DNA from: Acidimicrobiales bacterium
GTDB lineage: Bacteria > Actinomycetota > Acidimicrobiia > Acidimicrobiales > CATQHL01
DNA length: 64,000 nt
Assembly (NCBI GenBank): GCA_965206165.1
Contig: OZ242194.1
Location: forward strand, 367,451 to 431,450
Direction: 5' to 3'
The translations under genes and the position numbers were made by a program. Shown here one piece after another: positions 7,562-50,675 of the stretch; within the stretch, counting starts at the first letter, position 1; every line of letters begins with the position of its first letter. Under the pieces are notes generated by a model, which worked only from the letters and a program-made list of their open reading frames with translations, did not search any database and was not told where the DNA came from.

Positions 7562-7577
7562 GCCTGCGGCGGCGCCC

Positions 7578-9995: not shown

Positions 9996-10039
9996 GACCA
10001 CTCCTCGTCGATCGATGGGCCGTAGAGTTCCGGCACCCA

Positions 10040-10068
10040 TCAGACGATGCCGGCGGCCAATAAGTTCC
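10040..10068 (-). promoter_or_regulatory. Predicted ECF-sigma-type promoter of vWA paralog 1
   Basis: On the minus strand, GGAAC (10068-10064), a 17-nt spacer, then CGTCTGA (10046-10040), about 45 nt upstream of ATG 9995. The other two paralogs have the same motif and spacing. Confidence 0.55.
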
Positions 10069-10125
10069 CGAACATTCCGGGGCGCCCAACATCCTCGCAT
10101 CTTGAGGGCACGGCTCAGCGACCAC

Positions 10126-30980: not shown

Positions 30981-31148
30981 GGCGAAATCGCGCCGGCGCC
31001 GTCCCCCGGCGTCCCCACCTCGGTTGTTGGCGGTTCGTGCGGTGCTGTTGTCAGCGTCGGAGGGGGCGAAATCGCGCCGGCGCCGTCCCCCGGCGTCCCC
31101 ACCTCAGCTATTGGCGGTTGGTGCGGTGCTGTTGTCAGCGTCGGAGGG
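30981..31148. repeat. 84-bp tandem repeat x2
   Basis: Units 30981-31064 and 31065-31148 differ at 4 positions by eye. Unit 2 contains the last codons and the stop (31135-31137) of the HNH gene. Confidence 0.85.
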
Positions 31149-32751
31149 GTTGATTGACGGTGCCGCGCGCTCCGGTGGTGCTGGTTCGGTGGCGTGACGG
31201 GCCGCGTTTGCTCTTGTGGGCTTTGCCGTTGCGGGCCGTGGGCGGTGGTCGGTTGGGTGGGGGTTCGAGGCTGAATTTGCCGTCGGGGCCGCGAATCAAG
31301 TTGGCGCCGAGTTCGTGGATCTGCTTGTGGTGACAGTCACCACAGAGCAGGCAGAGATTGTCGATGTCGGTCGGCCCTCCCTTCTCCCACCAGATGACGT
31401 GGTGGGCCTGACAGAAGCTGTTCGAGGCGCCACAGACGGCGCAGCCCTTATCTCGAACGGCGAGGGCGACGCGCTGCGCGGTGCTGGCGTGGCGGTACTT
31501 GTGGCCCAACCACAGGGGCTGGCCCTTCGTGTCGAACAGGGCCGGAAGGATGTCGGCGTCGAGGGCCAACTTGAGGAGTTCGCTGGGCGCCAGGAGGGTG
31601 CCGTCGATGAGGCGGGCATCGCGTAACTGCCCGGCGACGAGGTCGTAGTCGGCGACGATCACCAGCGTGGCGCGCTGGGGGTTGCCGGCGCCTTGGCGGG
31701 TGATGAGCGCTTCGAGCGCATCCGCGTACCGCTGGGCGGGCGTGGCGCGGCTCTTGGCGTCTTCGGCGTGCCAGACCTTGTTGGCCATCGCCGCGAGCGC
31801 GATTTCGATGCGTGCCCCGGCGACGGGATCGAAGTGGCCGAACAGCTTGTACATGCCGTCGGATTGCTGCTTGATGTTCGCCTCGCGCTGCGCGCGCTGG
31901 CGGCGACGCCGCTCCTCGAGGTCTTCGCCGGCTGAGCGCTCGTTGACGTGGTCTCGGACCGTGTGGGCGAACACGTCGGCGGGTTCCTTCTCAGCGGCGG
32001 CCAGCAGTTCGGCCTCGTCAACGGGCGTGTGCGCAGCGGCGTCGGCGATCGCCCGGGCGTGCTGAGGCGTGATCGCACCGTCGGCGAGCGCCCCGGCAGT
32101 GCCCGGCAGGTCGGCGAGCCGCCCGGCGAACTGCACCTCCCGCTTGGCGCCACCCCGGGACTGCTTCAAGTCGCCGCGCAGCACCTCCGCGGCGCGCGCC
32201 TCACCATCACGGGCCGCCAGCGCCGCGACCGTCTCGGTCCGCACGCCCGCCAGACGGGCGTCGCAGCGCCCCACCAATCCCAGACGCTCCTCGAGCCGCT
32301 CCCCGCCCAGAGACCGCAACCCCACCACCAGCGCATCCAGCAACCCCAACAGATGCACCGAGGACGGCTCGCCGGCGCCTGGCGCAATGCCGGCGGCGTC
32401 GGTCGGCGACGCGGACGTCTCTCGCCCACTGGGCCGACGCTCGGAGGTGGTCGCACTGGCCGGGGAGGTCGTAGGCGACGCGGACGCATCTTGCCGACCC
32501 GGCCGACGTCCCGGCGACGGCTCAGCGCAACCCTTCGCACCGGCGGAGGAAGTGAGAGGTGACGCCGATGCGTCTCGCCGAGCCGGCCCATGCTCCAACG
32601 CAGGAGCACCGGCAGAACCAGCACCGGCCACAGCAGCCGGAGTCGTGGGGTCCGAGAAGAGGTTCAGGTCGGTCATCGGTGGCTCCCCCGGGGAACGCGT
32701 CGTCATCGGGTTCGGGTCGGCGGGGCCGACGAGCCGGTTGGGGAAGCTCAA
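31135..32751 (-). CDS. DUF222 / HNH endonuclease (REP13E12-type repeat-family protein)
   Basis: C-terminal HNH block CAVCGASNSFCQAHHVIWWEKGGPTDIDNLCLLCGDCHHKQIH. The upstream region is typical of actinobacterial DUF222 proteins. The start is uncertain (32751 or ATG 32676, MTDLNLF). Confidence 0.8.
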   Translation of the reverse strand: MSFPNRLVGPADPNPMTTRSPGEPPMTDLNLFSDPTTPAAVAGAGSAGAPALEHGPARRDASASPLTSSAGAKGCAEPSPGRRPGRQDASASPTTSPASATTSERRPSGRETSASPTDAAGIAPGAGEPSSVHLLGLLDALVVGLRSLGGERLEERLGLVGRCDARLAGVRTETVAALAARDGEARAAEVLRGDLKQSRGGAKREVQFAGRLADLPGTAGALADGAITPQHARAIADAAAHTPVDEAELLAAAEKEPADVFAHTVRDHVNERSAGEDLEERRRRQRAQREANIKQQSDGMYKLFGHFDPVAGARIEIALAAMANKVWHAEDAKSRATPAQRYADALEALITRQGAGNPQRATLVIVADYDLVAGQLRDARLIDGTLLAPSELLKLALDADILPALFDTKGQPLWLGHKYRHASTAQRVALAVRDKGCAVCGASNSFCQAHHVIWWEKGGPTDIDNLCLLCGDCHHKQIHELGANLIRGPDGKFSLEPPPNRPPPTARNGKAHKSKRGPSRHRTSTTGARGTVNQPLRR

Positions 32752-33945: not shown

Positions 33946-34632
33946 TCAGACGCTGTCGGTGTGCGTCGGGATGCCGACATGGATCGTCCGTCGCTCTGGC
34001 GGAGTGATGCAGACCTCAAAGCGAAGCAATGGCTTCGGGAGGCGAACATCAACGGTCGAACTCGCGGTGTTGTAGAAGCTCCGCAGTACGAAGTCCACGA
34101 AGGCGTGGGGCGTCACGCCGGCGGAGACCGGAATCCGGCATCCGGTGTATTGGCCGAGGGTCAGGTGCGACACCGGATGAGCCAGCTCAACTGCGACGCC
34201 TGCCCGACTGTCATAGTCGAACCGGCAGGGAATGGTTACGACCCCCTTCTCGACGACATCCGCGTACACCCGCTCCTGTATGTAGATCTCAGGATCGTTC
34301 TGGTATTCCAGCAGGTCGGGCGACGGGAGGAACGCGAGACGATGGCGGAACAGGCGTCGCCCTCGGAACTCGTACTCCATCTGCAGCATCGCGCCGTCGA
34401 GCATCAGGACGTTGAACGAGCGCGCTCGCCTCAACGCCTGGTAGGCCTCGTCGTACGGTGTGTTTCGGAATGCCGACCGGACTGTGCCGTGTGGCGCGTA
34501 GCGAACGAGGTGGTCACCGGCGCCCACGTGGGACTCGTACGGCGGGTTCTGATCGTCGGCGAGCCCGGACTCGACGAGCGCCGCGGTTGCGCTGTTGATC
34601 TCTTGGACCACCTTGCGATGCGCGGTCACCAT
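33946..34632 (-). CDS. Putative DUF2290-family protein (partner of the upstream helicase)
   Basis: 228 aa starting 7 nt after the helicase stop. The assignment to DUF2290 rests on size, gene context and my recollection of the family, not on a diagnostic motif. Confidence 0.45.
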   Translation of the reverse strand: MVTAHRKVVQEINSATAALVESGLADDQNPPYESHVGAGDHLVRYAPHGTVRSAFRNTPYDEAYQALRRARSFNVLMLDGAMLQMEYEFRGRRLFRHRLAFLPSPDLLEYQNDPEIYIQERVYADVVEKGVVTIPCRFDYDSRAGVAVELAHPVSHLTLGQYTGCRIPVSAGVTPHAFVDFVLRSFYNTASSTVDVRLPKPLLRFEVCITPPERRTIHVGIPTHTDSV

Positions 34633-36799: not shown

Positions 36800-37565
36800 G
36801 ATCTCGGTGTCTCGGATGGAATTCCTTGTCTTGCAGGAGCTTGCGGCCGGTCTATCCCAGCGTCGAGGTGCATGCCGCCTTGCGCGGCGAGCATACGCTC
36901 CCGCTCGGTCCGCAGGTAGGGGCAACGTGGGCGTCACAACGATGCGATCGACATGACGTGGGTGCGCATTCCGGGGCCGCCGGCCCCAATGGCGAGGAAC
37001 GATCACAGCGGCACTGAGGTGTAAGTTCAGTTAGTTCTATGATTGTAAGGTCTGCGAATAGAAGTGTCAATCCCCGCGGGTCCGCGGTGACTCCTAGACC
37101 TGGTGGCTGTAGGCGCACCGGCGCTGAAGCGCACACCTCGATCCCACCGTCGGCGGCGCTAGCGGCTGAGGGATGCGTCCCTGACGGGGTCCGCCGAGGA
37201 GGCGTTGTCGGGGGTGGGAATGACCTGCATCGGCGAGTTGGCGACATCGACGTCGTCGATCGCCAGCCAGGCCGAGACCACCCGGCGGCCAGCGCCCCGG
37301 CCAGCAGGTCGTCGAAGTAGCGATGGTGGTCAGGCCGTCTATGTCGATACCGGAGCGGCGGCATGTTCTGCGTCGGTGGGGATGAGGAGTCTGGGGTCGG
37401 TGCGCGGAAGAACCGCCCGCGCTGCTGGCTGCGGAGCAGCCGCGATGACAGCGAGTGAACCGATACCTCGCCGTGAGGTGCTGTTCGGTGTCCTCGTGCT
37501 CGCCAACGAGGTCCGCTCGATGGATGACGAGGCTCACAGCTAGGCGACAACCGGCGGGGTCGCTT

Positions 37566-39770
37566 CTACCCCCGCCGGCGGGAGCGGTGCCAGAGGCGGC
37601 GGCGTTTGGGGGGCGGGACGGCATGCGGCTCGGGCGGGGCTTGGCCGTCGGGGCCGGCAAGTTCCGCGGTCCAGTCGGTGAGGAATTGTTCGAGCTCGCT
37701 GTGGTGGAGGACTGTGTGGCCGCTGCTGCGGGCGTCGTCGTCGAGGATGGTGGAGGGCACCTCCTCCCAGTGGAAGGCGCCGCGCCCGTACTGGTCGATC
37801 CGCTCACGCACGATGACGCGTCGGCCGTCGAGCCACCATCCCTGGGGTCTGTCGGAGCCCGGGTCGATCCGTGCGTCGGGGCGCAGTAGGTAGCGGAGCT
37901 TGGCCTGTAGGCCCCGGTAGCGGCGCTGGGCGTACTGCTCCCAGGTTTGGGGAGCCGCCCAGGGCCGGGGGCGGAGTTGCGCCTCGGGCGGCGCCAGCGT
38001 GTCGGGTGGCTGCAGGGTGTCGGGCAGCGTCAGGGCCTCGCTCAGTGCACTGGAGGACAGCGCGAGGTAGTCGGCGGGCAGGGGGTCGTCGGCGAGCGCG
38101 TCGAGGACGGTGTCGAGGTAGCGCTTGTAGAGGTGCCCGGAGAGCCGGTCGGTGACAGCGCGTATCCGGTCGTCCTGTTGTTGGCGGATGGCGTGCTTGT
38201 AGACGGGCAGCGCGGTGTCGGTGTAGATCAGCAGCGCCCGTTTGACGATCTCGTCGGGGAAGCCGTGTTCCTGGCGGTTCATCGACAGGACGAAGGCGGG
38301 GTACTCGTCGAGTCCGGGGGGTGTCTCGTCCTTGATGAAGTCCTTGCCGGTGCGTCCCATGCTGCGGGTGCTCACGTCGTCGAAGAAGACGGGGCAGCGC
38401 TTCGCCGAGTGGGTGATCTCCAGCAGTGCGGCGGTCTTGAAGTTGGCCTTCGGCTGGCACGGCCCGAGTGGGTCGGCGGGGAACATGGAGCGCAGCAGGG
38501 TAGCGATGAGGCTGCTCTTGCCGCAGTTGGCCTTGCCGTAGACGATGGCGACGCGCTCGTAGCGGATGACGTCGCGGTTGCGAAGGGCGGCCCGGTTGCG
38601 CAACTCGCAGACGAACGGCGCGAAGTACAGCCACGCCCAAAGAGTGAAGTACTGCGCCTTGAGGTCGCTGATCTGCTCGGGGGTGCCGGAGAAGTGGTCG
38701 AAGCCGTCGAAGTACTCCACCATGAGTCGGGCGTCGGCGGCTGCGAGCGCCGGGTCCCAGCGCAGGTCGAAGGGTTTGCCGGCGAAGGCCGCGCTGCGGG
38801 TCACGTGGTCGATGGACAGCGAGGCGGGTTCGCGCTGCTCGGCGGGCCGGAAGCGCAGTGCCTCACGAATGTTGCGCTTGGCGGCGCGGCTGAGGATGTG
38901 CTCGCCCCTGCGGGCGGGCGGCACGTGGGAGCCGATCCGGGTGCGGATGATCTTGGCGTGCCGTTCGATGGTGGCCTGGTCGTCGCGCCCGCTGCGCGGC
39001 GACGCGTCGTCGGCCACGGCAAGGACCGTGTGCGCCTCCTCGTCGCCGAGCAAGGGAGCGTCCTGGATCTCGATGGGGCGGTTGCGTTCCGCGAGCACCT
39101 TCGGATCGATGGCCTGCGATGCCTGGTCACGGACCTCGCGGTACTTGGCGCCGAAGTGCTCCCAGGCGCCGGGATCGTCGTCGTAGGAGGCGATGGTCTC
39201 CTGCTGCCAGCCGCCGAAGGCCTGCTCGGAGAAGTTGGCCGAGCCCATCACGACGCGACGCTGCGGGTCCTGCCCGCCGTCGAGGAGGTACAGCTTGGAG
39301 TGCGAGACCTGCTTGCGCAGCACGCGGAACGCCAGTCGCCCCTCCAGCAGCGCTTCGATGACGGACTCCTCGGTCTTGGAGAGGTCGTCGATGAGAACCT
39401 TGGCGCTGTGCATGGCCGCGTGCTGCGCGGCGAGCACCTTCTCGATGCGATTGATGGTCGCCGTGGTGCCGATGATGCATTCGATCTCGTCGAAATCGAA
39501 GTCGACGATGAGGCGGTTCACGGTGCGCAGGTCGACCGAGTACGTCAGGATCCGACAAGAGGTGAAGCCGGCGAACAGCTGCCAGGTGAACTTCTGATCT
39601 CCGACGAAGCGGGATTGGGCGACGCGCAGGCCCGTGCCGTCGTCGAGCGTCAGGCCAGGCTGGTCAACCACTGCGGGCGCGACCGACGCTCGGAGCGGAG
39701 CGGGTCCAGCGAGCCGGTCGCCAGCGGTGATGCTGGCCGGAGGGGGAATGTTCGGAATCGTGACGGACAT
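37566..39770 (-). CDS. PLD/Nuc-type (single HKD) nuclease domain fused to SF3-helicase-like P-loop NTPase
   Basis: HKD: HSKLYLLDGG...VVMGSANFSEQAF (nt about 39228-39302). Walker A GKANCGKS (38514-38537), Walker B-like VFFDDV (38373-38390) and FVLSMNRQ (motif C-like). RBS GAGGAG before ATG 39770. Confidence 0.75.
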   Translation of the reverse strand: MSVTIPNIPPPASITAGDRLAGPAPLRASVAPAVVDQPGLTLDDGTGLRVAQSRFVGDQKFTWQLFAGFTSCRILTYSVDLRTVNRLIVDFDFDEIECIIGTTATINRIEKVLAAQHAAMHSAKVLIDDLSKTEESVIEALLEGRLAFRVLRKQVSHSKLYLLDGGQDPQRRVVMGSANFSEQAFGGWQQETIASYDDDPGAWEHFGAKYREVRDQASQAIDPKVLAERNRPIEIQDAPLLGDEEAHTVLAVADDASPRSGRDDQATIERHAKIIRTRIGSHVPPARRGEHILSRAAKRNIREALRFRPAEQREPASLSIDHVTRSAAFAGKPFDLRWDPALAAADARLMVEYFDGFDHFSGTPEQISDLKAQYFTLWAWLYFAPFVCELRNRAALRNRDVIRYERVAIVYGKANCGKSSLIATLLRSMFPADPLGPCQPKANFKTAALLEITHSAKRCPVFFDDVSTRSMGRTGKDFIKDETPPGLDEYPAFVLSMNRQEHGFPDEIVKRALLIYTDTALPVYKHAIRQQQDDRIRAVTDRLSGHLYKRYLDTVLDALADDPLPADYLALSSSALSEALTLPDTLQPPDTLAPPEAQLRPRPWAAPQTWEQYAQRRYRGLQAKLRYLLRPDARIDPGSDRPQGWWLDGRRVIVRERIDQYGRGAFHWEEVPSTILDDDARSSGHTVLHHSELEQFLTDWTAELAGPDGQAPPEPHAVPPPKRRRLWHRSRRRG

Positions 39771-40372
39771 CGGCGCTCCTCATGTCGGGATCCGGGCCAA
39801 AGCGGCTGACCATGAACCTAAGACGGGGGTGTGACACCCCAAGGAGGGCGGGAGTATCGCGGTGTCCACGACGCCAGCCACTGTGCCGACCGCCGGCTCT
39901 GCCCACAGGTCACGCCGGTGTTGCGCGCCCAGCGCGTGGTCTGGTCCGCGAGGCCAGCGGCGGATCATCGTCGACTCCGCCCGCGCCGGCCGCAGTGTCG
40001 CCTCGCCCCGTCCCCGGTGGTCATCTACCGTTCGCTGCGCTCGTCTTCTCACAGTTTGGAGGCCCGACGGTGTTGGTGGACCACCGAGCCTGCCGCACCG
40101 GTGCTGCCAACCCGAGCTGAACACGCACGTGGGTCGGGCGCCGGTGAGAGAGACAATGCCGATCGCGGGACTCCGGGGCAGACCGCGGCTATTTGCGCCC
40201 AGCAGGTGCGTACGATTCCAGCCACCGACGCGGCGGAACTGCGCGCCGGCACGGCTGCTTCGACTACACACCACTGATGTAAGCCCAAGATGCCCACGGG
40301 CAAGCCAGGGCGACATGGAGTCGTCTCGCGGGATACTGCGCGACCACGCCGTTTCGGCTGAAATGAGGACCG

Positions 40373-41923
40373 ATGATCACCGGTGAACTCAGAACCAAGA
40401 TCGACGCTGTCTGGAACGACTTCTGGTCGGGCGGTATCTCCAACCCGCTCGAGGTGATGGAGCAGCTCACGTATCTGCTGTTCATCAAGGCCCTCGACGA
40501 GCGCCAGACGCTCGCTGAGAACAAGGCGAACCGAACCGGCCAGCCGATCGACGAGGTCATCTTTCCCGAGGGTGAAGATTTCCTGCCCGAAGGACTCGTC
40601 CGCAGCCGACCGTACGGCGACCTCCGCTGGTCGAGGTTCAAGCACCTGCCCGCGGCCGACATGTTCGAGGTGGTCGAGAACTACGTCTTCCCGTTCCTGC
40701 ATCAGCGGGCGGACGAGAGCACCCACGCCAAGCACATGCAGGGTGCCCGTCTCACGATCCCCACTCCAGGGCTCCTGCAGAAGGCGGTGGATGGTCTCGA
40801 CGCGATCCCGATGGCAGACCGTGACACCAAGGGTGACGTCTACGAGTACATGCTCTCCAAGATCGCCACCGCGGGGCAGAACGGCCAGTTCCGGACGCCA
40901 CGGCACATCATCCGGCTGATGGTTGAGATGATGGCTCCCCAGCCGGACGACGTGATCTGTGATCCCGCGAGCGGAACGTGTGGGTTCCTGGTGGCGGCAG
41001 GCGAGTACATCCGCAATCACCATCCGAGCGCACTCACCGACTCAGCGAAGGCACGGCACTTCCACAACGGACTGTTCTCCGGCTACGACTTTGACAACAC
41101 GATGCTACGGATCGGGTCGATGAACATGCAGTTGCACGGCGTGCAGAACCCCAACATCAGCTATCGGGATTCTCTGGCCGAGGACCACGCCGGTGGCACC
41201 GAGGCCTACAGCCTGATCCTCGCCAACCCGCCCTTCGCCGGCTCGCTCGACTACGAGAGCACAGCCAAAGACCTCCTCCAGGTTGTGAAGACCAGGAAAA
41301 CCGAGCTGTTGTTCCTAGCGTTATTCCTGCGGCTCGTCAAACCCGGTGGCAGAGCAGCGGTAGTCGTCCCCGAGGGGGTGTTGTTCGGATCATCCAAGGC
41401 CCACCGCGAGTTGCGCCGCATCCTAGTGGACGATCAGAGGATCGACGGTATCGTCTCGCTGCCAGCTGGAGTGTTCAAGCCCTACTCCGGGGTCTCCACG
41501 GCGATTCTCTTGTTCACCAAGACTAACTCTGGCGGCACCGACTACGTCTGGTTCTACGACCTTGAGGCCGACGGATATAGTCTTGACGACAAGCGAGCGG
41601 CACTGCTCGATCATGCCAAGCTCGGTTGTTCTGCAGTGGCGCTTACAGATAGCGACCGCGCTAAGAATAATCTCCCCGACGCGCTTGACCGCTGGAAGAA
41701 GCGGAACACTTATGAGCGCGATCGCACTCGAATCAACCAGTCCTTTTGCGTTTCCAAAGCTGACATCGTGCGCAATAGCTATGACCTCAGTATCAAGCGC
41801 TACAAGGAAGCTGTTGTCGAAGCGATGGCCTACCCCCAACCAATGGCACTCGTTGCTGAACTCGAAGCACTTGAGATCACGATTGTTCAAGGTATCGCCG
41901 ATCTAAGGGCGATGTTGACATGA
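40373..41923 (+). CDS. hsdM: Type I restriction-modification system, methyltransferase subunit
   Basis: N-terminal HsdM domain (IDAVWNDFWSGGISNPLEVMEQLTYLLFIK), motif I DPASGTCGFL and motif IV NPPFAGS. Confidence 0.95.
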   Translation: MITGELRTKIDAVWNDFWSGGISNPLEVMEQLTYLLFIKALDERQTLAENKANRTGQPIDEVIFPEGEDFLPEGLVRSRPYGDLRWSRFKHLPAADMFEVVENYVFPFLHQRADESTHAKHMQGARLTIPTPGLLQKAVDGLDAIPMADRDTKGDVYEYMLSKIATAGQNGQFRTPRHIIRLMVEMMAPQPDDVICDPASGTCGFLVAAGEYIRNHHPSALTDSAKARHFHNGLFSGYDFDNTMLRIGSMNMQLHGVQNPNISYRDSLAEDHAGGTEAYSLILANPPFAGSLDYESTAKDLLQVVKTRKTELLFLALFLRLVKPGGRAAVVVPEGVLFGSSKAHRELRRILVDDQRIDGIVSLPAGVFKPYSGVSTAILLFTKTNSGGTDYVWFYDLEADGYSLDDKRAALLDHAKLGCSAVALTDSDRAKNNLPDALDRWKKRNTYERDRTRINQSFCVSKADIVRNSYDLSIKRYKEAVVEAMAYPQPMALVAELEALEITIVQGIADLRAMLT

Positions 41924-43122
41924 GTCCGCTCATTGCGGTCAATCAGTTGGCTACCCAGGTACGCGGAGTCTCATACAAGAAGGCGGAGGCTTCACTGACA
42001 CCAGCACCTGAGTTGATTGGTGTGGTCCGCGCGGGCAATATTGTCGATGGCGAGCTAACGACAAGCGCCCTTGTTTATGTACCGGCCGCGAGGGCAAAGG
42101 CAAGCCAATTGTTGAGAAAGGGCGATGTTCTGATTGCCACCTCAAGTGGCAGTCTTGACGTCGTTGGTAAGGCCGCCCGTATCCGCGAAGACGAGAGGGT
42201 GGCGTTTGGAGCGTTTTGTAGAGTGTTGCGGCCCGGTGGACATGTTGATCCAGCTTACTTTGCCCATTATTTCCAGACTGAGAGTTACCGAGCTTACGTG
42301 TCAAGTGTGGCTGCGGGTACTAATATAAACAACCTAAAGAAGGATCATCTCGACGAAATTGCGATTCTTCTGCCACCGATCGAGGAGCAGCGGCGGATCG
42401 CGGCGGTGCTCGACGCGGCTGATGCACTTCGCGCGAAGCGCCGCCAGGCTCTCGCCAAACTCGATTCCTTGAGCGAAGCCATCTTCATCGAGATGTTCGG
42501 TGACCCAGTCACCAATCCTCTGGGATGGCGCAATGACCGTGTACTCGCCGAAGTTGCCGAGGTCCGGTCTGGAATCACGAAGGGACGCAAAACCAGGGGC
42601 GCACCGTTGACCGCCGTGCCATATCTCGCCGTTGTGAATGTCCAAGATGGCTTCATCGCACTCGATCCGCTGAAGTCGATCGACGCTACTGCCGCGGAAG
42701 TCAAGAAATACGCTTTGCACGTTGACGACATCCTTCTGACAGAGGGCGGTGACCCCGACAAACTTGGTCGAGGTGCTGTGTGGCATGGCCAAGTCGAGCC
42801 GTGTATCCATCAGAATCATGTGTTCCGTGTACGGCTGGCTGATAACGGCATGACGCCTGAGTTCCTGAGTCGTCTTCTCGGAAGTCAGCGCGGCAAGCGG
42901 TATTTCCTCCGCATGGCGAAGCAGACCACGGGGATTGCGTCGATCAACATGACGCAGCTTCGAGCTTTTCCTCTACTCGAGCCGCCGCGAGCAGCCCAGG
43001 ACGAGTTCTGCAAGCGACTTTCCTGGGTACAGGCGGCTGAGGCGACACTCCAGCACTCGGCAGACCAACTCGACGCGCTGTTCGCCTCGCTACAGCAGCG
43101 GGCCTTTCGGGGTGAGTTGTGA
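41920..43122 (+). CDS. hsdS: Type I restriction-modification system, specificity subunit
   Basis: Two target-recognition halves separated by conserved helices (LPPIEEQRRIAAVLDAADALRAKRRQAL ... LDALFASLQQRAFRGEL). 4-nt overlaps with hsdM and hsdR. Visibly A/T-richer. Confidence 0.9.
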   Translation: MSPLIAVNQLATQVRGVSYKKAEASLTPAPELIGVVRAGNIVDGELTTSALVYVPAARAKASQLLRKGDVLIATSSGSLDVVGKAARIREDERVAFGAFCRVLRPGGHVDPAYFAHYFQTESYRAYVSSVAAGTNINNLKKDHLDEIAILLPPIEEQRRIAAVLDAADALRAKRRQALAKLDSLSEAIFIEMFGDPVTNPLGWRNDRVLAEVAEVRSGITKGRKTRGAPLTAVPYLAVVNVQDGFIALDPLKSIDATAAEVKKYALHVDDILLTEGGDPDKLGRGAVWHGQVEPCIHQNHVFRVRLADNGMTPEFLSRLLGSQRGKRYFLRMAKQTTGIASINMTQLRAFPLLEPPRAAQDEFCKRLSWVQAAEATLQHSADQLDALFASLQQRAFRGEL

Positions 43123-46100
43123 GCGGATCGCAGTTTTCGTTCCTGGAGGCGGAGTTTTCGGCGGAGTTCGAGATGGCGTCTTGGGCGGAGCGACACGCCT
43201 TGTCGGATCCGGGCCCGGCTGTGATCTATGCGCGGAAGTGCTTGGAATCTGGGGTCAGGTGGGCGTACCGGCACGACCGGGCGCTTCCGCTGCCGTATGA
43301 GGAGAACCTCAATGCGTACCTGAGCGAGCCGGCGTTCAAGGCTCTGGCCGGAGGTCGGGTCTTCGACGTGGCGAGGAAGATCCAGCGAGCTGGGAATCGG
43401 GCGGTGCACGAGTCGAAGCCGCCGTCGAAGTTGGAGGCGGTCGAGATTCTCTCGGCGCTGTTCCAGTTCTGCTTCTGGTTGGCGTTCACCTACGGCCGAT
43501 CGGCGAAGCCCGACCGCTCGGCGAAGTTCGATCCGCACAGGCTGATGGACGCAGGCAAGGCTGCGCAGACCTCGCTGAACGAACGCAGGGACCTTGAGGA
43601 GCGGCTGGGGCGGGAGGCCGAGGAGAATCTCCTGGCCCGTCGGAGGTTGGTGGAGGCGACCCGGACCGCCGAAGAGATCGAGGCTGAGCTGGCCAAGTTG
43701 CGGGCCCAGGTGGCGGCGGCGAAAAAGGCGGCCGAGTCGATTCCGATCGAGGCACACGACTGGTCCGAGGCCGACACGCGCCGGTACAAGATCGATGTGC
43801 TGCTGGCCGAAGCGGGCTGGACCGACTTCGTCGATGGTCGCGACATCGAATACGAGGTGCACGGGATGCCCTCCGACTCGGGAGTCGGCTACGTCGACTA
43901 CGTCCTGTGGGGTGAGGACGGGAAGCCGTTGGCGGTGGTGGAGGCGAAGAAGACCCTGGTCGACCCTCGGGTGGGTGAACAGCAGGCCAAGCTCTACGCC
44001 GATTGCCTCGCTGCTGCGACCGGTCAGCGGCCGGTCGTGTACTACAGCAACGGCTACGAGCACTGGCTGTGGGATGACACCCAGTACCCGGCACGACAGG
44101 TGCAGGGCTTCTACACCCGCGACGAACTCGCCTTGCTCATCCAACGACGCAAGACCCGGCAGCTGCTGTCGTCGCTGGACATCGAGGATCGGATCGTGGA
44201 TCGCCACTACCAGCAGCGAGCGATCCGGGCCATCACCGAGCACTTCGAGACCGATAAGCAACGCAAGGCGCTGGTGGTGATGGCCACTGGTGCGGGCAAG
44301 ACCCGTGCCGTGATCGCTCTAGCGGATCTGCTGATGCGGGCCGGTTGGGTCAAGCGGGTGTTGTTCCTGGCGGATCGTACGGCGCTGGTGCACCAGGCGG
44401 TGAACGCGTTCAAGGCTCACCTGCCGGATTCGGGGCCGGTGAACCTGGTGACCGAGGGCCACGAAGACGGTCGGGTGTACGTCTCGACCTATCAGACGAT
44501 GGTAGGCAAGATCGACGAGTACCGGGCCGATGGCACCCGCCGGTTCGGTGTCGGGCACTTCGATCTGGTGGTGATCGACGAGGCTCACCGGTCGGTGTAC
44601 CGCAAGTACCGGGGCATCTTCGACTACTTCGACTCGCTGCTGGTGGGGCTGACCGCCACCCCGAAGGACGAGGTCGACAAGAACACCTACGACCTGTTCG
44701 ACCTCGAGACCGGCGTGCCCACCGACGCCTACTCGCTCGATGAGGCCATCAAGGACGGCTACCTCGTCCCGCCCCGGGGCGTGTCTGTGTCGTTGAAGTT
44801 CGTGCGCGAGGGAATCCGCTACGGCGACCTGACCGAAGACGAGAAGGACGAGTGGGACGAACTCGACTGGGGCGAGGACGACGACGGCAAGCCGATCGAT
44901 CCGCCCGACGAGGTCAACCCCGATCAGTTGAACAAGTGGCTGTTCAACGAGGACACCGTCGACCGGGTCCTTGAACACCTCATGACCGAAGGGATCAGGG
45001 TGGCCGGCGGCGACCGGCTCGGCAAGACGATCATCTTTGCCAAGAACCAGCTCCACGCCGACTACATCAAGACGCGGTTCGACGCGAACTATCCGGCGCT
45101 GGATGCCGGGAACTTCGCTCGGGTGATCACCTACCAGGTGAACTACGGGCAGAGCCTGATCGACGACTTCTCGAACAAGCACAAAGCACCCCACATAGCG
45201 ATCAGCGTCGACATGCTCGATACCGGCATCGACATCCCCGAGATCGTCAACCTGGTGTACTTCAAGCTGGTTCGCTCCAAAACCAAGTTCTGGCAGATGC
45301 TCGGCCGCGGCACCCGGCTGTGCGAGAACCTGTTCCGGCCCGGTGACGACAAGGCCAACTTCAAGGTGTTCGACTTCTGTCAGAACCTCGAGTACTTCAG
45401 CCAGCCACTCGCCCCGGCCGAGCCGTCCGGCGGCATACCGCTCGGCGAGGCACTCTTCGCTGCCCGTCTCGAACTGCTCGACGTGCTTGGGGGGATGGAG
45501 GCCCTCGGTGACGCACGGGCAAGTGTCGCTACCACCTTGTGCGAGACCGTTGCGTCGATGAACGAGAACAACTTCCTGGTACGCCCCCACCTGGAGCTGG
45601 TCGAACGCTTCCGCGCTCCCAAAGCGTGGGAAACGATCACTCTCGAAGACCTGGCAGCGCTCAAGAGCCGGGTCGCGAAGCTGCCCGACCAGCTCGACGC
45701 CGACAACGAGGACGCCAAGCGCTTCGACGTCGTGATGCTCAGTGCCCAACTCGGCCTGCTCCGCCATGAGCCGTTCGAGCGGCAACGCAAGCGCATCATC
45801 GCCGTCGCGTCCGCGCTCGAAGACCTCGGCGCCACTATCCCTGCCGTCGCCGAGCAGATGGAGCTGATCGCCGACATCCAAACCGACGAGTGGTGGGTGG
45901 ACGTCAGCTACCCCATGCTCGAAGACGCTCGCAAGCGGCTGCGCAGCATCGTGCAACTCATCGAGCGCTCCCGCAAGACGCCGCTGTACTCCGACTTTGG
46001 CGACGATCTCGGTGAGAGCACCGAAGTCGAGCTCCCCGGCACCGGGGGCAGTGTTGGCAGCCCCGAGTTCGCGCAGTTCCGCAAGAAGGCCCGGCACTTC

Positions 46101-46535
46101 CTCAAGGAGAATCTCGCTAACGACATCGTGGCCAAGATCCGCAGCGGCGAACCAATCGGCGCCGCCGAGATGGACGAACTCCAGCGGGTGCTCGTTGCCG
46201 CCGGTATCGGCGATACCGAAACCTTCGCCCAGGCCTCAGAACGCGCCGGCAGCTTCGGGCTCTTCGTCCGCTCCCTCGTCGGCCTCGACCGGGCTGCCGC
46301 GAAACGGGCCTTCGCAACGTTCCTCGACGACAAGCGCTACAGCCGCAACCAGCTCACCTTCGTCAACCTGGTCATCGACTACCTCACCGAGCACGGCACC
46401 ATCGACCCCGCCCGTGTCTACGACTCACCGTTCACCAGCGTCGCACCGGAAGGTCCCGAGGTCATCTTCGTCAAGGACGATCTAGACGACTTCTTCGAAA
46501 TCGTGCGACAGCTTCACGACGCAGCCATCGCGTGA
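43119..46535 (+). CDS. hsdR: Type I restriction endonuclease subunit R (EcoEI-like, with DUF4145-like N-terminus)
   Basis: HsdR_N block EADTRRYKIDVLLAEAGW, Walker A MATGAGKT, DEAH box VIDEAHRS and a long C-terminal EcoEI_R_C-like region. Confidence 0.9.
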   Translation: MSGSQFSFLEAEFSAEFEMASWAERHALSDPGPAVIYARKCLESGVRWAYRHDRALPLPYEENLNAYLSEPAFKALAGGRVFDVARKIQRAGNRAVHESKPPSKLEAVEILSALFQFCFWLAFTYGRSAKPDRSAKFDPHRLMDAGKAAQTSLNERRDLEERLGREAEENLLARRRLVEATRTAEEIEAELAKLRAQVAAAKKAAESIPIEAHDWSEADTRRYKIDVLLAEAGWTDFVDGRDIEYEVHGMPSDSGVGYVDYVLWGEDGKPLAVVEAKKTLVDPRVGEQQAKLYADCLAAATGQRPVVYYSNGYEHWLWDDTQYPARQVQGFYTRDELALLIQRRKTRQLLSSLDIEDRIVDRHYQQRAIRAITEHFETDKQRKALVVMATGAGKTRAVIALADLLMRAGWVKRVLFLADRTALVHQAVNAFKAHLPDSGPVNLVTEGHEDGRVYVSTYQTMVGKIDEYRADGTRRFGVGHFDLVVIDEAHRSVYRKYRGIFDYFDSLLVGLTATPKDEVDKNTYDLFDLETGVPTDAYSLDEAIKDGYLVPPRGVSVSLKFVREGIRYGDLTEDEKDEWDELDWGEDDDGKPIDPPDEVNPDQLNKWLFNEDTVDRVLEHLMTEGIRVAGGDRLGKTIIFAKNQLHADYIKTRFDANYPALDAGNFARVITYQVNYGQSLIDDFSNKHKAPHIAISVDMLDTGIDIPEIVNLVYFKLVRSKTKFWQMLGRGTRLCENLFRPGDDKANFKVFDFCQNLEYFSQPLAPAEPSGGIPLGEALFAARLELLDVLGGMEALGDARASVATTLCETVASMNENNFLVRPHLELVERFRAPKAWETITLEDLAALKSRVAKLPDQLDADNEDAKRFDVVMLSAQLGLLRHEPFERQRKRIIAVASALEDLGATIPAVAEQMELIADIQTDEWWVDVSYPMLEDARKRLRSIVQLIERSRKTPLYSDFGDDLGESTEVELPGTGGSVGSPEFAQFRKKARHFLKENLANDIVAKIRSGEPIGAAEMDELQRVLVAAGIGDTETFAQASERAGSFGLFVRSLVGLDRAAAKRAFATFLDDKRYSRNQLTFVNLVIDYLTEHGTIDPARVYDSPFTSVAPEGPEVIFVKDDLDDFFEIVRQLHDAAIA

Positions 46536-46905: not shown

Positions 46906-48117
46906 TCAGAGTACACTGTCCTTGTCGACAGCTTGGGCTGGCGCACCGAATGTGAGTATGGTCTCCGTCCGCATACGGCGCGCTAGCGAGGACGTGCTTG
47001 CGGAAGGTGGCGGAAGATAGCGTCTCGTAGGCGGTAGGTCTCGCTCGAAGCGTTCAGTCAGCAACAATCCGTGCCTGCATGCTACCGTCGCCACAATCGC
47101 TGCATTGTCAACCGCAACTCCGCGAATGGATGAGTTGCCAATGATGAAGACCGCGCGACCGTTCTCTTCTAGGACGCGGGAAGTTTCTGCAAGTACCATG
47201 TCCATGTCTCCAGCAAAGCGACGGAGCATGTTCCGAGAACGTCCAGGTAATGCTTCGACATTGCGGCAACTTCGTAGAATCTGCTCTACGCAGTCATGGT
47301 CGTAGTCCTGCGTTGGCGCTCGCTCAGCTCCGATGCTCGCTGAACGAATACGCCGTAGACCATCCAAGGGCTCTCCAAGCCAGATCAGTGCTAGGCGATG
47401 ACCGCGCAGGTAGTCGATAGCGTTGAGGTACGGTGGTGATGTCACCACCGCAGCAATGCTGCCGTTTTCGATATCGGCTAGGTTCCTTGCGTCGCCAAGT
47501 CGGACAGAAGAATTCGAGCCACATGGAACATCAATAGCAGCGACAATCTGTTCTACAGATGGGATGAAAGCGTCGAGAACATCGAAGCTACTTTGATCCC
47601 AAACTCGGTGAGGCCGACTATGTGCGGTATCACGTGCCAATGAAGCGCCGGGCTCCTTGCGGATGATCAGACGGCTGAGGGCTAGTTTCAGCAGATCGCT
47701 AGTTGCGCCATGTTCAGTGAGCAGTGCCAAAGCAAGGGCACGCAACTGCTGTTCTTGCTTGGACGCAAACCAGAAGCGTACGAACGCCGTCGCCTGGGGG
47801 TTGTTGTCAATGGCCGGCAACGAGAGGGCGCCATATCCAAGCAGCTCGTGCGCTCGCTTGAGCGTTGCTATCGCGGCATCTCTGACGGCCGTCAGATCCG
47901 GCTTCGTGGTCGCGACCCTAGACATAAGCACCGCGAGCGGATCGATGTCTCTACCAGTGGCCGCGAGGCCTTGACGTAACGATTCGGTAAGGACGGTGCC
48001 GGATCCACACATCGGATCAAGTACGCGAGCACCCGGGCGGACTCCCTGCAACGCGTCCAGCGCTAGTTGCGGGGCCATCCGAGCCGGGAACGGATGTACA
48101 TAGCGAGTGGCCATCAC
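46906..48117 (-). CDS. DNA methyltransferase (N6A or N4C class)
   Basis: AdoMet motif VLDPMCGSGT near the N-terminus and catalytic TSPPY (VVTSPPYLNAIDY). The start overlaps the stop of the upstream GHKL gene (GTGATG). Confidence 0.8.
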   Translation of the reverse strand: MMATRYVHPFPARMAPQLALDALQGVRPGARVLDPMCGSGTVLTESLRQGLAATGRDIDPLAVLMSRVATTKPDLTAVRDAAIATLKRAHELLGYGALSLPAIDNNPQATAFVRFWFASKQEQQLRALALALLTEHGATSDLLKLALSRLIIRKEPGASLARDTAHSRPHRVWDQSSFDVLDAFIPSVEQIVAAIDVPCGSNSSVRLGDARNLADIENGSIAAVVTSPPYLNAIDYLRGHRLALIWLGEPLDGLRRIRSASIGAERAPTQDYDHDCVEQILRSCRNVEALPGRSRNMLRRFAGDMDMVLAETSRVLEENGRAVFIIGNSSIRGVAVDNAAIVATVACRHGLLLTERFERDLPPTRRYLPPPSASTSSLARRMRTETILTFGAPAQAVDKDSVL

Positions 48118-50675
48118 GTATCGGCTATCAGGGCGTGTATTTCAATCTGCAGATCGTCGGCCAGGCGCCGGTCGAGTTCGCGAATGACCTCGGCCGCAGA
48201 TTGGTCCATACGGACATAACCGTCATCCTCCACACTGAGCCAGCGTTCACCTAGGAGTTGGGCGATTGCCTCTAGTGCGGACTTTAGTCGCTCGGGATTA
48301 TGTAGCTTGAGCGGAGCGTGATTCGCTCTTGCCGCGTTCAGATGAGGCCTCGAATTTTCGTCGTGTTGCTTTTCCTTCTCGAGGGCCCGGAGAAGCTCGC
48401 CTAGAGGTAGTTCTTGCTTGGCCTCAAGGCGTTCTTGAAGCCGCTTCACCCAGTCCTTTGTCTCGGGAACCGTGTGGGCACTCTCGAAGAGATCTCTCAG
48501 TTCAGGAAACGTCAATCCGAACCTGTAATGAAGTCTCACTAAGGTTATGAGATCAATTGTCCGCAGCACTGTCACCTTGTCTCCTCTTTCAGCAACGGAG
48601 TCAATACGCCGGTTTAGTGCTCCAGCCGCATCATTCTCTGCCTCGAAGCTGTGTCCAACGACTAAACCGTACTCCGCGCTCATAGAATCGGCAAATTCGA
48701 CAATCGCCTGGACGTTCACTTTGTTGGCCGCAATTCCAGTGCTATCTGATGTCTTCGCATCGTAGACGACCGAATAGTCAAGAGTATCGTCCAATCCGCG
48801 CCCCAAACGTGCACGGATAATCCCATCGGGACGGCCTGCACCGCCGAGTGGCTCGTAGTCGAATCCAATAATCTCAAAGCCGCGCCCGACGGCGCGCTCC
48901 ATCGCAAGAGGATCTGCATTGGCAATCTGGAGGTGGCGCAGCACTGCTGCTACGTCCATTGGCTGTTCGCCTGCCAGACGGCGAAGGATGTGATCACGCT
49001 GACGGAAAATCTCATGTACTTCGTAACCGCTTAGTCCACTGCTGCGGACGAGCGCGTAGGTCATGATCTCTGACGCTGTCAGAAGCCGCGCGGGACTGCT
49101 TCCCTTAGCGTTTGCAACGATACGAGACCCAAACGGGTGATCCTTGTTTAGGTACATGATGCCTGTCGCAGAATCGTATCTGCACAGTTGCCCTTGTGGC
49201 TCATCGCGGACCACCTCAAAATCAGCAAATGTTTGCTGCCGGAGTCTCTCGTCGGTTTCCGCTAGCCACGAGTCAACTGCGGCGTCGTCAATCTCCGGTG
49301 TCTGTATGTAGTTGAAAGCCGGGCCCCCATCATGGAGGTCGCTACGAATGGCCGCTAGGAGAGGAGCGACTAGGACAGGCGATATGTCCCTTTCAAGGAT
49401 GCTGTCGATCTCGATGTCGTCAAGCTGTGTTTTGGCGTGGTTGTCATAGAACGCGCGACAAGCGTTAAAGGACTTGTGCATGTAACGCCGCAAATCTCTG
49501 ATTGGTTCTGAGTCGCGGACGCCCTCGCGCGACGATAAGAGATGATCTCTGAGGCCATCGGCATCTATCTCCATTATGAAATGCGCCCAGGCCGAATGGT
49601 TCATAGCATTAAGGCCAAATAGCTCATCGTCAAGATTGATGACCCGTCCTCGGACTCGAACGAAAAAGCCATTGCTCCGGCCATACTCAAGAGACTTGCC
49701 TCTCGTTAGCTCATCCTTGAAGATTCTTGCCTTCCCGGTTACGCTTCCGATACCAGCGATCTTGACTCCGCTGGCAGTGGTTGATAGGTTGAGATCTATC
49801 GCAGCTCTGTCGTCGGTTCCACCGACCTCGATCGTATGGAGCACTTCTCCTTGGGTCTTCGAGGGTTCTAGTCGCGTGGCATTGAGATGGATGGTGAAGT
49901 TTGATATCAAGGGAAGGCCCGTCCTCAGTACCCATCCGAGTCGGCCCTCTTGGAGCTTGTCAACCAATTCACGGAAATCAGAAAGGGCAGCAGCTGTCCA
50001 AGTGGGAGAGCTGTCGGGTCCAAAGAGACGCCCCCACATGTGCGGATCAAGCTCCTCTATTCTGCTCAATAGAACACGGGCGTCAGCCTCCGAGATGCTG
50101 TGAAGGTGCACCTTGGCAGGGTCGGACTTTGGGTCGCTCTGCCGGCCGGTAACCGTACGGAAGTTCATGTTCGCGAATCGGAACTCGCCTGCCGCGGACT
50201 TACTGATGTGGGTCAACTGCCAAGCTAAGACATATGCTGCAAGCTTTCCGATCCCGAACTGACCAATCGGAGAACGACCGTGCTGTTCATTTCCACTGGC
50301 CTTGTTCGACTCTGCAACGAGCCATAGTTGGCGGAATCCATCGTCGTCCATCCCGCACCCGTCGTCGACTACCCAGAGTACTTGGTCCTCGACATCAACA
50401 GGATCTGCGGAAGGTAGCACCACCGATACGAGCTGCGCTCCTGCATCGAACGAGTTCGCGACCAGTTCTTCAACAGCCTTGTGAGGACTCTGGTATAGCC
50501 CTTCTGAAAAGAGTCTGATGATGTCGTAGCTGATCGGGACTGGGATCTCAGTACCTTCAGTATTCTCGGCCAGGCGATGCCGGAGCTGTCGAGGTGAAGG
50601 TTGGTATTGATTCACGAGATCGTTCTCCTCTGATACGCGGAATACTTGGTGCTTCAACGTTGCCCTTGCATCCAC
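48114..50675 (-). CDS. GHKL (HATPase_c_3, MORC-like) ATPase fused to a PD-(D/E)xK nuclease-like C-terminal domain
   Basis: Bergerat N-box EELVANSFDAGA and G1 box VVDDGCGM (nt about 50346-50471), then G2-like GQFGIGKLA. C-terminal GRPDGII...YSVVYDAKTS (nt about 48750-48840) fits PD...(D/E)xK. Confidence 0.75.
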   Translation of the reverse strand: MDARATLKHQVFRVSEENDLVNQYQPSPRQLRHRLAENTEGTEIPVPISYDIIRLFSEGLYQSPHKAVEELVANSFDAGAQLVSVVLPSADPVDVEDQVLWVVDDGCGMDDDGFRQLWLVAESNKASGNEQHGRSPIGQFGIGKLAAYVLAWQLTHISKSAAGEFRFANMNFRTVTGRQSDPKSDPAKVHLHSISEADARVLLSRIEELDPHMWGRLFGPDSSPTWTAAALSDFRELVDKLQEGRLGWVLRTGLPLISNFTIHLNATRLEPSKTQGEVLHTIEVGGTDDRAAIDLNLSTTASGVKIAGIGSVTGKARIFKDELTRGKSLEYGRSNGFFVRVRGRVINLDDELFGLNAMNHSAWAHFIMEIDADGLRDHLLSSREGVRDSEPIRDLRRYMHKSFNACRAFYDNHAKTQLDDIEIDSILERDISPVLVAPLLAAIRSDLHDGGPAFNYIQTPEIDDAAVDSWLAETDERLRQQTFADFEVVRDEPQGQLCRYDSATGIMYLNKDHPFGSRIVANAKGSSPARLLTASEIMTYALVRSSGLSGYEVHEIFRQRDHILRRLAGEQPMDVAAVLRHLQIANADPLAMERAVGRGFEIIGFDYEPLGGAGRPDGIIRARLGRGLDDTLDYSVVYDAKTSDSTGIAANKVNVQAIVEFADSMSAEYGLVVGHSFEAENDAAGALNRRIDSVAERGDKVTVLRTIDLITLVRLHYRFGLTFPELRDLFESAHTVPETKDWVKRLQERLEAKQELPLGELLRALEKEKQHDENSRPHLNAARANHAPLKLHNPERLKSALEAIAQLLGERWLSVEDDGYVRMDQSAAEVIRELDRRLADDLQIEIHALIADT

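Follow-up and report, generated by a model that had tools for sequence, protein, structure and literature searches.

According to published work, the type IV enzyme SauUSI of Staphylococcus aureus acts through a dimeric, translocating mechanism (PMC7913695; 10.1101/2025.10.16.682607), and in CglI and NgoAVII the cleavage performed by a nuclease of the phospholipase D (PLD) family depends on the hydrolysis of nucleoside triphosphates (NTPs) (PMC4267653, PMC4267654, PMC5861437). Systems pairing a PLD-type nuclease with an NTPase, such as Azaca and Mokosh, defend E. coli against phage (10.1101/2025.07.10.664194), and nucleases in which an N-terminal PLD domain is joined to a sensor or a helicase (END nucleases, BfiI, SauUSI) are precedents for defence by one gene, which in the END/BfiI type is missed by both PADLOC and DefenseFinder (PMC12191111). 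Here we analyse a gene located at positions 37566-39770 (minus strand) of a 64,000-nucleotide stretch of contig OZ242194.1 of an Acidimicrobiales bacterium (hereafter, the window), whose product joins a PLD nuclease domain to a P-loop ATPase resembling those of superfamily 3 (SF3) helicases; we refer to it as the PLD-SF3 gene.

The single-HKD PLD fold, the SF3-type ATPase fold, the strict conservation of both catalytic centres and the absence of an obligatory partner gene are established by our analysis. The explanation that we favour, and to which we would give slightly better than even chances, is that of a self-contained ATP-driven nuclease of the "nuclease-NTPase" class, most likely restricting foreign DNA; a defence role is plausible. 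The initial annotation, made from the sequence, had spoken of a stand-alone NTP-driven nuclease immunity protein: its stand-alone character and the PLD and SF3-like folds are upheld, whereas immunity is less firmly indicated than was claimed, the guilt by association being moderate. What would be new is a putative ATP-dependent, restriction-like PLD nuclease with an unprecedented SF3-type motor; the family itself is known, in that it already has a Pfam entry carrying no function.

The features of the gene and of its product are listed below, where A1 is the alignment of 36 closer homologues, A4 a diverse alignment including members 20-25% identical to the window protein, and pLDDT the predicted local distance difference test of the structural model.

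39776..39781, minus strand: Shine-Dalgarno-like GAGGAG, 5 nt upstream of the ATG (direct sequence reading).
37566..39770, minus strand: complete open reading frame (ORF) encoding a PLD nuclease, a linker, an SF3-like ATPase, an unassigned C-terminal domain and a cationic tail (ORF list, translation, full-length homologues of 38-94% identity).
39600..39770, minus strand: residues 1-57, poorly conserved leader, predicted to be disordered (pLDDT <50; N-terminus variable in A1).
39123..39599, minus strand: residues 58-216, single-HKD PLD-superfamily nuclease domain of the Nuc/BfiI/NgoFVII type (sub-threshold Pfam matches, Foldseek).
39228..39302, minus strand: HKD signature H157-x-K159 ... G176-S177-A178-N179-x-S181 (and E182) (family-wide invariance).
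38955..39086, minus strand: residues 229-272, variable low-confidence linker between nuclease and motor (pLDDT <50; indel-rich in A1 and A4).
38571..38954, minus strand: residues 273-400, helices and a small beta element ahead of the ATPase core (secondary structure of the model).
38211..38570, minus strand: residues 401-520, SF3-like P-loop ATPase core (Foldseek matches in PDB and BFVD).
38514..38537, minus strand: Walker A GKANCGKS, G412-S419, with the catalytic K418 (G412, G417 and K418 invariant or nearly so in A1 and A4).
38373..38390, minus strand: Walker B VFFDDV, V461-V466, with D464 and D465 (invariant in A1; D465 nearly invariant in A4).
38271..38294, minus strand: motif C/sensor-1 block FVLSMNRQ, residues 493-500, with S496-M497-N498 (N498 invariant in A1 and A4).
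38238..38243, minus strand: K510-R511, candidate arginine finger, 13 residues past sensor 1 (R511 invariant in A1 and A4).
37659..38210, minus strand: residues 521-704, post-ATPase helices (526-581) followed by a conserved alpha/beta C-terminal domain (~598-704) of unrecognised fold (separate model).
37569..37622, minus strand: residues 717-734, cationic C-terminal tail AVPPPKRRRLWHRSRRRG, net charge +8 (sequence; tail type present family-wide).

The positions originally assigned to the HKD signature, the Walker A and Walker B motifs and the FVLSMNRQ block were all reproduced by arithmetic on the translation. The HKD signature reads H157-S-K159-LYLL-D164 ... G176-S177-A178-N179, which meets the pattern HxK(x)4D(x)6G(S/T)xN; neither A1 nor A4 shows any variation at its H, K, G, S and N, and D164 is swapped for E, S or N in some family members of A1. 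Among the Pfam profiles, PLDc_2 (E 4.5e-5, 23.7 bits) and RE_NgoFVII (E 1.7e-4, 21.4 bits) match the window protein below their curated cut-offs (27 and 23.8, respectively), and these cut-offs are passed by relatives (RE_NgoFVII 29.6 in P0154, PLDc_2 28.9 in P0133). An AlphaFold2 monomer model was built from the 36 homologues; when it was compared with PDB structures using Foldseek, its N-terminal third retrieved Zucchini (4gel) with a probability of 1.00, a TM-score of 0.45 on the target and a root-mean-square deviation of 6.6 over 174 columns, together with BJ-TSA-9 (4urj) and SauUSI (7clg).

The motor is recognisable by structure. The ATPase region has no match in Pfam, NCBIfam, PHROG or PDB sequences and hence no SF3 sequence profile, and neither the whole protein nor the profile of the family gave a useful match in PDB sequences, NCBIfam or PHROGs. 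Foldseek against PDB retrieved Cch of SCCmec (5dgk, E 5.7e-7), the large T antigens of JC virus and simian virus 40, Rep40 of adeno-associated virus 2, poxvirus D5, papillomavirus E1 and B19 NS1, all of which rank ahead of classical AAA+ proteins; the top matches, that is Cch, the large T antigens, Rep40 and D5 (E 5.7e-7 to 1e-3), outrank NVL, Msp1, RFC and RuvB, and among the viral models of BFVD the best matches were DUF927/P4/D5 primase-helicases, large T antigens and parvoviral NS1. Both domain assignments of the initial annotation, PLD and SF3-like ATPase, are thus supported by model and Foldseek. The catalytic residues are spaced K418 -46- D464/D465 -33- N498 -13- R511, and these distances fit those between Walker A, Walker B, sensor 1 and the arginine finger in SF3 enzymes. 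By analogy with large T antigen and Rep40, R511 may act as the arginine finger; a GKDFIKDE block (G475-E482), conserved in A1, probably lies where motif B' would be, and the long helices 340-359 and 364-396 occupy the position of the SF3 collar/oligomerisation domain and might play that role.

Down to 20-25% identity (A4), H157, K159, G176, S177, N179, S181, G412, K418, N498 and R511 are invariant, and so are D464 and D465 among the 36 closer homologues. Such invariance rules out that the motifs are there by chance and implies that both enzymatic centres are under strong selection.

The C-terminal region had been described as a tail of about 240 residues with no recognisable motif, and this picture holds. 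Indeed, when the last ~190 residues were modelled separately (pLDDT 77), the C-terminal domain matched no PDB fold at E <0.1; the best hits, Cch (E 0.11) and Pur-alpha (E 0.5), were rejected as its fold, not being significant. Invariant residues of this domain in A1 include W604, R617, R630, G644-W645, W668 and V671-P672-S673, and distant family members diverge in residues 521-704, which may serve for target recognition or regulation. In a low-confidence linker of this region, residues 583-594 (~37989-38024) repeat a six-residue unit in tandem (PDTLQP-PDTLAP), as part of an insertion of about 12 residues found only in the window protein and in the 94%-identical P0001.

At the DNA level, the ORF list and the translation agree with the previous description of the gene: it opens with an ATG preceded, 5 nt upstream, by a good ribosome-binding site, GAGGAG, and encodes 734 residues plus a stop codon. 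The intergenic distances are also as described, with a divergent gap of 602 bp (39771-40372) to hsdM upstream and one of 766 bp downstream, the latter provided that the ATG at 36799 is the start of the next gene, a helicase; this start is supported by the PADLOC alignment, in which the longer ORF, opening with GTG, is aligned from residue 75 on. About 240 nt upstream of that likely start there is a sigma-70-type promoter, TTGACA-17-TACAAT (37070-37042, minus strand), with 11 of 12 consensus matches, from which we infer that the helicase and the DUF2290 gene that accompanies it form an operon with a separate promoter of its own. A near-consensus promoter at this place (37042-37070, minus strand) is unusual in DNA of 68% GC. 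The view that the PLD-SF3 gene is its own transcription unit is therefore sustained: it stands alone, the downstream operon is served by a separate promoter, and no neighbour family recurs in more than 14 of 85 homologous loci. Structured RNAs and terminators were looked for around the gene, and none was found.

The fusion had been called an orphan, and this proved to be wrong. A word-indexed search returned 43 clusters of homologues (38-94% identity, ~90% of the length covered), all of which, including the 94%-identical P0001, carry a precomputed hit to PF27394 (Aq_aa27), the Pfam family to which the window protein probably belongs. A profile search of 1.84 billion representatives extended the family to at least 1,108 clusters at the 50% identity level (E <=1e-3; 347 of them at <=1e-30), most of them with proteins of 640-800 residues aligned from the PLD domain through the ATPase, that is, with a fixed architecture. 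In addition, 391 relatives were confirmed among 185,579 GTDB species representatives (one genome per species). The family spans Chloroflexota, Actinomycetota, Latescibacterota, Acetobacteraceae and others; NCBI labels its plasmid copies as "phospholipase D family protein", "restriction endonuclease PLD domain-containing protein" or "hypothetical protein". Literature searches on Aq_aa27 gave only spurious matches, and those combining PLD, SF3 and defence found no paper describing the fused architecture.

In one distant subfamily (P0100, P0075, P0129, P0139) the N-terminal leader is replaced by HTH_17, a DNA-binding domain of the Xis/AlpA/MerR type, and in all four contexts inspected the gene is again solitary. 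Both this subfamily and the cationic tail are new features, which the initial annotation had not seen.

Concerning the distribution of the family, the 80 closest genome matches among the 391 relatives (loci L005-L084) are nearly all metagenome-assembled genomes of bacteria living with sponges or corals and belonging to several phyla (Dehalococcoidia/SAR202, Caldilineaceae, Acidimicrobiia, Candidatus Spongiisociaceae, Latescibacterota, Longimicrobiales), with proteins ~38-43% identical to that of the window. This distribution suggests cross-phylum exchange within the habitat, and the window genome itself is probably sponge-associated, since the L005 orthologue is 92% identical. On the Thermus oshimai plasmid pTHEOS02 (L087, 8061-9173) there is a copy that covers only query residues 283-555; it has no PLD domain, borders directly on a transposase gene and is probably what remains of a truncated gene.

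The genes surrounding the homologues, called from ORFs with a filter on the G+C content at third codon positions (GC3), were clustered over 85 loci, and no conserved partner gene was found: the commonest neighbour family, a short-chain dehydrogenase, occurs at 14 of the 85 loci and hsdM at nine. The absence of a conserved neighbour implies that the PLD-SF3 gene works alone; its product is one fused chain, and the adjacent genes include no conserved methyltransferase.

As to the association with defence, about 20 of the 136 genes immediately adjacent at 68 genome loci are defence-like (6 hsdM, 4 mad3, 4 DUF4143/PDC-S01, 3 Schlafen-like, 2 cyclases and 1 effector of cyclic-oligonucleotide-based anti-phage signalling systems, CBASS), versus ~8-10 of 122 (about 7%) in a control, a trimmed set of genes lying ~7 kb from the target at the same loci. 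An independent and more diverse metagenome sample (126 genes no more than two positions away, ~38 loci) gave ~12% of defence-like genes, including McrBC, GmrSD, AbiEi/Eii, BrxC, LeoBC, CapP-like, HEC-05/06 and DUF6414. The association is real and falls off with distance, but it is moderate: the counts show an enrichment (~12-15% of adjacent genes vs. ~7% at 7 kb) but not a strong association, most neighbours being housekeeping genes.

The single loci are heterogeneous. Defence or toxin-antitoxin genes surround the copies of the window, L001, L088, L089 (HepT/MNT beside uvrCA), L091 and the plasmids, the last two in toxin-antitoxin islands; L002, L090, L092 and L095 are surrounded by debris of insertion sequences (IS) and integrases, and L003, L004 and L093 by plain housekeeping genes. 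The L088 homologue, 57% identical, sits in a dense island (1209-12186) with an Eco57I-like methylase (1003 aa), a fusion of PLD with an SNF2-type helicase (1175 aa), a KAP NTPase (687 aa) and, further on, an AAA_21/DUF4435 protein. At L094 (9001-17644), an HTH_17-bearing homologue is followed after 39 nt by an RNase_T-DinG-like helicase gene (975 aa), and then by three tandem OGG_N/HhH-GPD glycosylase paralogues and an SNase gene; this cluster may sense modified bases.

The comparison of the closest orthologues (92-94% identical, in the window, L001 and L005) revealed that the gene has been retained while the flanking cassettes were exchanged: type I restriction-modification (RM) genes against a CBASS effector and Hma on one side, and the helicase-DUF2290 pair against unrelated genes on the other. 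L001 (94% identical) has hsdR and hsdM with 93% and 87% DNA identity to those of the window, lacks helicase-DUF2290 and carries an IS (HTH_Tnp_1 + rve) in the 600-bp gap between hsdM and the PLD-SF3 gene; L005 (92% identical) keeps helicase-DUF2290, with a CBASS-type effector and an Hma helicase upstream replacing the type I RM genes. Furthermore, the hsdS genes of the window (41920-43122) and of L001 (5335-6522) do not align at all, which, given the similarity of hsdR and hsdM, implies that the type I system swapped its recognition specificity between close relatives. In both orthologues extra DNA begins within 0-75 nt 3' of the stop codon (2.6 kb in L001, 12281-14874; 1.7 kb in L005, 12183-13922), and the DNA just 3' of the PLD-SF3 stop codon (the 37490-37566 region of the window) is an insertion hot spot.

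Further afield, copies with 83-91% DNA identity reside in unrelated contexts, their homology ending ~0-30 nt from the ends of the ORF (e.g., L023 vs. L044, 90.9%). The PLD-SF3 gene, in other words, moves alone; the change of context is solid, the exact boundaries are soft. Such ORF-tight boundaries were rejected as proof of a cassette or transposon, given that neutral flanks may themselves have diverged at 81-91% DNA identity. In 54 of 78 loci the GC3 of the gene is below that of its neighbours (median -0.046; Wilcoxon p = 1.5e-5), suggesting that it was acquired horizontally.

This mobility bears directly on the main rival explanation, according to which the protein would be a replication or mobilisation initiator, or the product of a selfish self-mobilising gene: the PLD domain would nick DNA via a covalent phospho-histidine and the SF3 helicase would unwind from the nick, making the protein a PLD-based equivalent of parvoviral and CRESS-virus HUH-SF3 Reps or of Helitron RepHel. 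Structurally, the motor is closest to replicative helicases, all of them from viruses or mobile elements (Cch, large T antigen, Rep40, NS1, D5, P4/DUF927), and the order "nuclease, then SF3 helicase" is the Rep layout; moreover, one subfamily carries the Xis/AlpA-type HTH_17 domain at its N-terminus, the gene relocates alone with homology stopping near the ends of the ORF, and several loci lie among integrases and IS elements. However, terminal inverted or direct repeats were looked for around the window copy and none was found, and no conserved non-coding flank that might serve as an origin or element end was detected beside the relocated copies. The 80 retrieved genome loci come from 80 different records, with no multi-copy spread seen (copies per genome were not counted), and many copies lie between housekeeping genes without an integrase.

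Equally relevant is the distribution among mobile elements: tblastn found no match in 50,697 phage genomes, pattern scans of IMG/VR with two alignments, one of them the subfamily alignment A7, found none either, and only 8 of 72,556 plasmids carry a family member, located in toxin-antitoxin cargo regions away from the repA and relaxase genes that these plasmids possess on their own account. The Pfam scan of the window protein revealed no primase-type domain. Membership in a phage or plasmid primase-helicase replication module, which had been named beforehand as one of the findings that would overturn the immunity proposal, was therefore not observed, and we regard the initiator explanation as unlikely. 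A little less probable still appear, in our judgement, two more specific proposals: a PLD-based Rep-like enzyme (phospho-histidine nickase plus SF3 helicase) constituting a minimal one-gene element or a rolling-circle-type initiator and, as a second reading, a membrane-tethered "entry-gate" nuclease, held by a MinD/FtsA-like tail, that would thread and shred incoming DNA.

A cellular enzyme of DNA maintenance, active for example in repair or in the processing or clearance of DNA structures at the membrane or septum, is a further, rather improbable alternative. It would fit the loci found between core genes, such as ybeY/dnaX/recR (L004), uvrC/uvrA (L089), sugar and redox genes (L003) or an RNase D-like gene (L093), as well as the L094 cluster, where the gene precedes the RNase_T-DinG-like helicase and the three OGG-like glycosylases; the GC3 of the gene in the window genome is also host-like (0.90 vs. 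0.83) and above that of the flanking cassettes. Nevertheless, the patchy distribution (391 of 185,579 species representatives), the absence of conserved synteny, the atypical GC3 at most loci, the relocation of the gene alone between contexts and its enrichment beside defence and toxin-antitoxin genes are features of an accessory gene, and they weaken this hypothesis.

In the window the PLD-SF3 gene was correctly placed between two defence systems. Upstream, in divergent orientation, lie hsdM (40373-41923), hsdS (41920-43122) and hsdR (43119-46535), with very strong Pfam and PADLOC matches to type I RM; the downstream side is occupied, on the strand of the PLD-SF3 gene, by the genes for a UvrD-like helicase (PADLOC "Helicase" PDLC03002, 953 bits) and for a DUF2290 protein (33946-34632; PDLC02999, 262 bits). 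The island further comprises a type II methylase accompanied by a GHKL ATPase, a Schlafen/AlbA_2 protein and an AAA_14-DUF4143 protein (PDC-S01). The type II-like DNA methyltransferase (46906-48117, minus strand) overlaps the gene for the 853-aa GHKL (HATPase_c_3) protein (48114-50675, minus strand), and the two occupy the lowest-GC stretch of the window (46906-50675, 0.53-0.57); they probably form one more restriction-like module of recent acquisition. The island edge is marked by a DUF222 + HNH endonuclease gene (31135-32751, minus strand), which is conserved in L001 and L005.

This arrangement might suggest that the protein acts in a system of several genes together with a neighbour, either helicase-DUF2290 or the type I RM genes, in view of the physical adjacency to both and of hsdM being the most frequent adjacent gene among the homologues (6 of 68 loci). 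Against this idea, which we consider very unlikely, the helicase-DUF2290 pair is active as a two-gene system and as such blocks phage T7 experimentally (10.1101/2021.01.21.427644). Outside the window the pair co-occurs with the gene at L005 only, the window hsdM has relatives in only four loci and hsdR in one, and the two closest orthologues do without one system each, L001 without helicase-DUF2290 and L005 without type I RM. The separate near-consensus promoter of the helicase operon also speaks against such membership.

The tail deserves attention of its own. Over 138 family members, the last 15 residues have a mean charge of +4.1, versus -0.15 for internal windows; the charge is at least +3 in 80% of the tails against 10% of the internal windows, and the hydrophobic moment of the tails is higher. 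Many of them (e.g., KRGFLARVLRRG, GWISRLKNFFK and KHGWFWRLFHRG) resemble the membrane-targeting helices of MinD or FtsA. The tail of the window protein, KRRRLWHRSRRRG (+8), is richer in arginine than these and could bind nucleic acid instead of membrane. An action of the PLD domain on membrane phospholipids, as an ATPase-gated membrane effector of the abortive-infection type brought to the membrane by the tail, is likewise very unlikely: the superfamily does include phospholipases and cardiolipin synthases, the cationic amphipathic tail is family-wide and MinD/FtsA-like, and Zucchini/MitoPLD, one of the structural matches, is anchored to a membrane and was initially taken for a lipase, but the profiles and folds that the PLD domain matches best belong to nucleases (the RE_NgoFVII PLD domain, SauUSI, Zucchini and, weakly, Tdp1), the domain is joined to the fold of a DNA motor, and the phospholipases of the superfamily usually have two HKD motifs per chain, whereas the window protein has one.

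Returning to the explanation that we favour, an ATP-driven nuclease directed against foreign DNA, its mechanism may be imagined as follows. By analogy with SF3 rings, the SF3-like module (the collar helices plus the P-loop core with K418, D464/D465, N498 and R511) would assemble into a ring, which would use ATP to translocate along, or to thread, DNA. The N-terminal PLD domains, contributing half an active site each, would pair as in the dimerising single-HKD nucleases Nuc, BfiI, Zucchini and SauUSI, and the paired domains would cut the DNA fed by the motor through a metal-independent phospho-histidine intermediate on H157. The variable, unassigned C-terminal domain would pick the target, with a possible contribution of the N-terminal HTH_17 domain in one subfamily, and the cationic amphipathic tail would tether the enzyme either to nucleic acid or to the membrane, the site of entry of foreign DNA. 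As no cognate methyltransferase travels with the gene, the discrimination between self and non-self should be type-IV-like, that is modification- or structure-dependent, rather than that of classical RM.

Several points weigh against this interpretation. Most of the adjacent genes, in the genome and metagenome samples alike, are housekeeping ones, and some loci lie between core genes such as ybeY/dnaX/recR or uvrC. No significant match to any PADLOC-DB v2.0 model was found: the sole hit is to ZacB of Azaca (E 3e-4, 17.8 bits) and is confined to the PLD core (residues 97-195), so that the PADLOC check of the window suggested in the initial annotation returned no named system for this gene beyond that weak match, and the view that the domain order corresponds to no named system holds within that database. 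The full-length model is moderately confident (mean pLDDT 71, predicted template modelling score 0.56), with confident cores at residues 58-216 and 320-580. To our knowledge, moreover, SF3 motors have so far been encountered as replicative helicases of mobile elements and not as restriction motors, and the oligomeric state, the substrate and the function of the tail are inferred.

If the PLD-SF3 gene is indeed a defence system, then a widespread single-gene immunity module would be added to the known set, and it would offer, as far as we found, the first case of an SF3-type ring motor, a hallmark of viral and plasmid replication, turned on foreign DNA, and another example of a replication component of mobile elements recruited into host defence. 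The conserved cationic tail provides a directly testable idea of where in the cell such enzymes work. Carriers of the family are especially frequent among bacteria associated with sponges and corals, in which the content of defence genes is thought to shape the symbiont communities, and the compact protein of the family, which needs no partner, lends itself to easy experimental testing.

A final question concerns the relationship with the known systems. Like the window protein, the ATP-dependent SauUSI is a single chain with a single-HKD PLD domain, an ATP motor and a C-terminal region, in this order, and has no cognate methyltransferase; a Foldseek search with the full-length model found its structure (PDB 7clg) at E 3.9e-4 over 611 columns. 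However, SauUSI possesses an SF2 motor (DEAD/ResIII + Helicase_C) and a DUF3427 target-recognition domain, whereas the window protein has an SF3-like motor and no such hits, and outside the PLD core there is no detectable sequence similarity between the two. CglI and NgoAVII are ATP-dependent restriction endonucleases in which a PLD nuclease cuts at the expense of NTP hydrolysis by a motor; they resemble the window protein in the type of nuclease (its PLD domain matches Pfam RE_NgoFVII below the cut-off, which relatives pass), but they are split enzymes. The END nucleases and BfiI follow the same modular logic, a BfiI/NgoAVII-type N-terminal PLD domain plus a variable module; in END this module is an inactive EndoIII/OGG-like sensor and there is no ATPase, whereas the window protein has a ~450-aa SF3-like motor and an unassigned domain. 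In Mokosh, Azaca and DISARM (DrmC) a PLD nuclease is also paired with an NTPase or helicase, but the latter belongs to SF1 or SF2 and usually several genes are involved, against one SF3-like motor and one gene here.

The SF3/D5-like helicases (Cch 5dgk, P4/DUF927, D5, large T antigen, Rep/NS1), in turn, are the best structural matches from residue ~273 on and share the Walker A, Walker B, sensor-1 asparagine and arginine-finger spacing, as well as a catalytic domain N-terminal to the helicase; in these proteins, which belong to replication modules of phages, plasmids or islands, that domain is a primase, an origin-binding domain or an HUH nuclease, whereas the PLD-SF3 family has a PLD nuclease in its place, matches no SF3 sequence profile and is not found in phage collections. 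The window protein is not a member of the SauUSI, CglI/NgoAVII, END/BfiI or multi-gene nuclease-NTPase systems, because the motor, sensor or subunit features that define them are absent from it. Its closest functional analogue would be SauUSI, followed by CglI/NgoAVII and then by the N-terminal-PLD defence nucleases END and BfiI.

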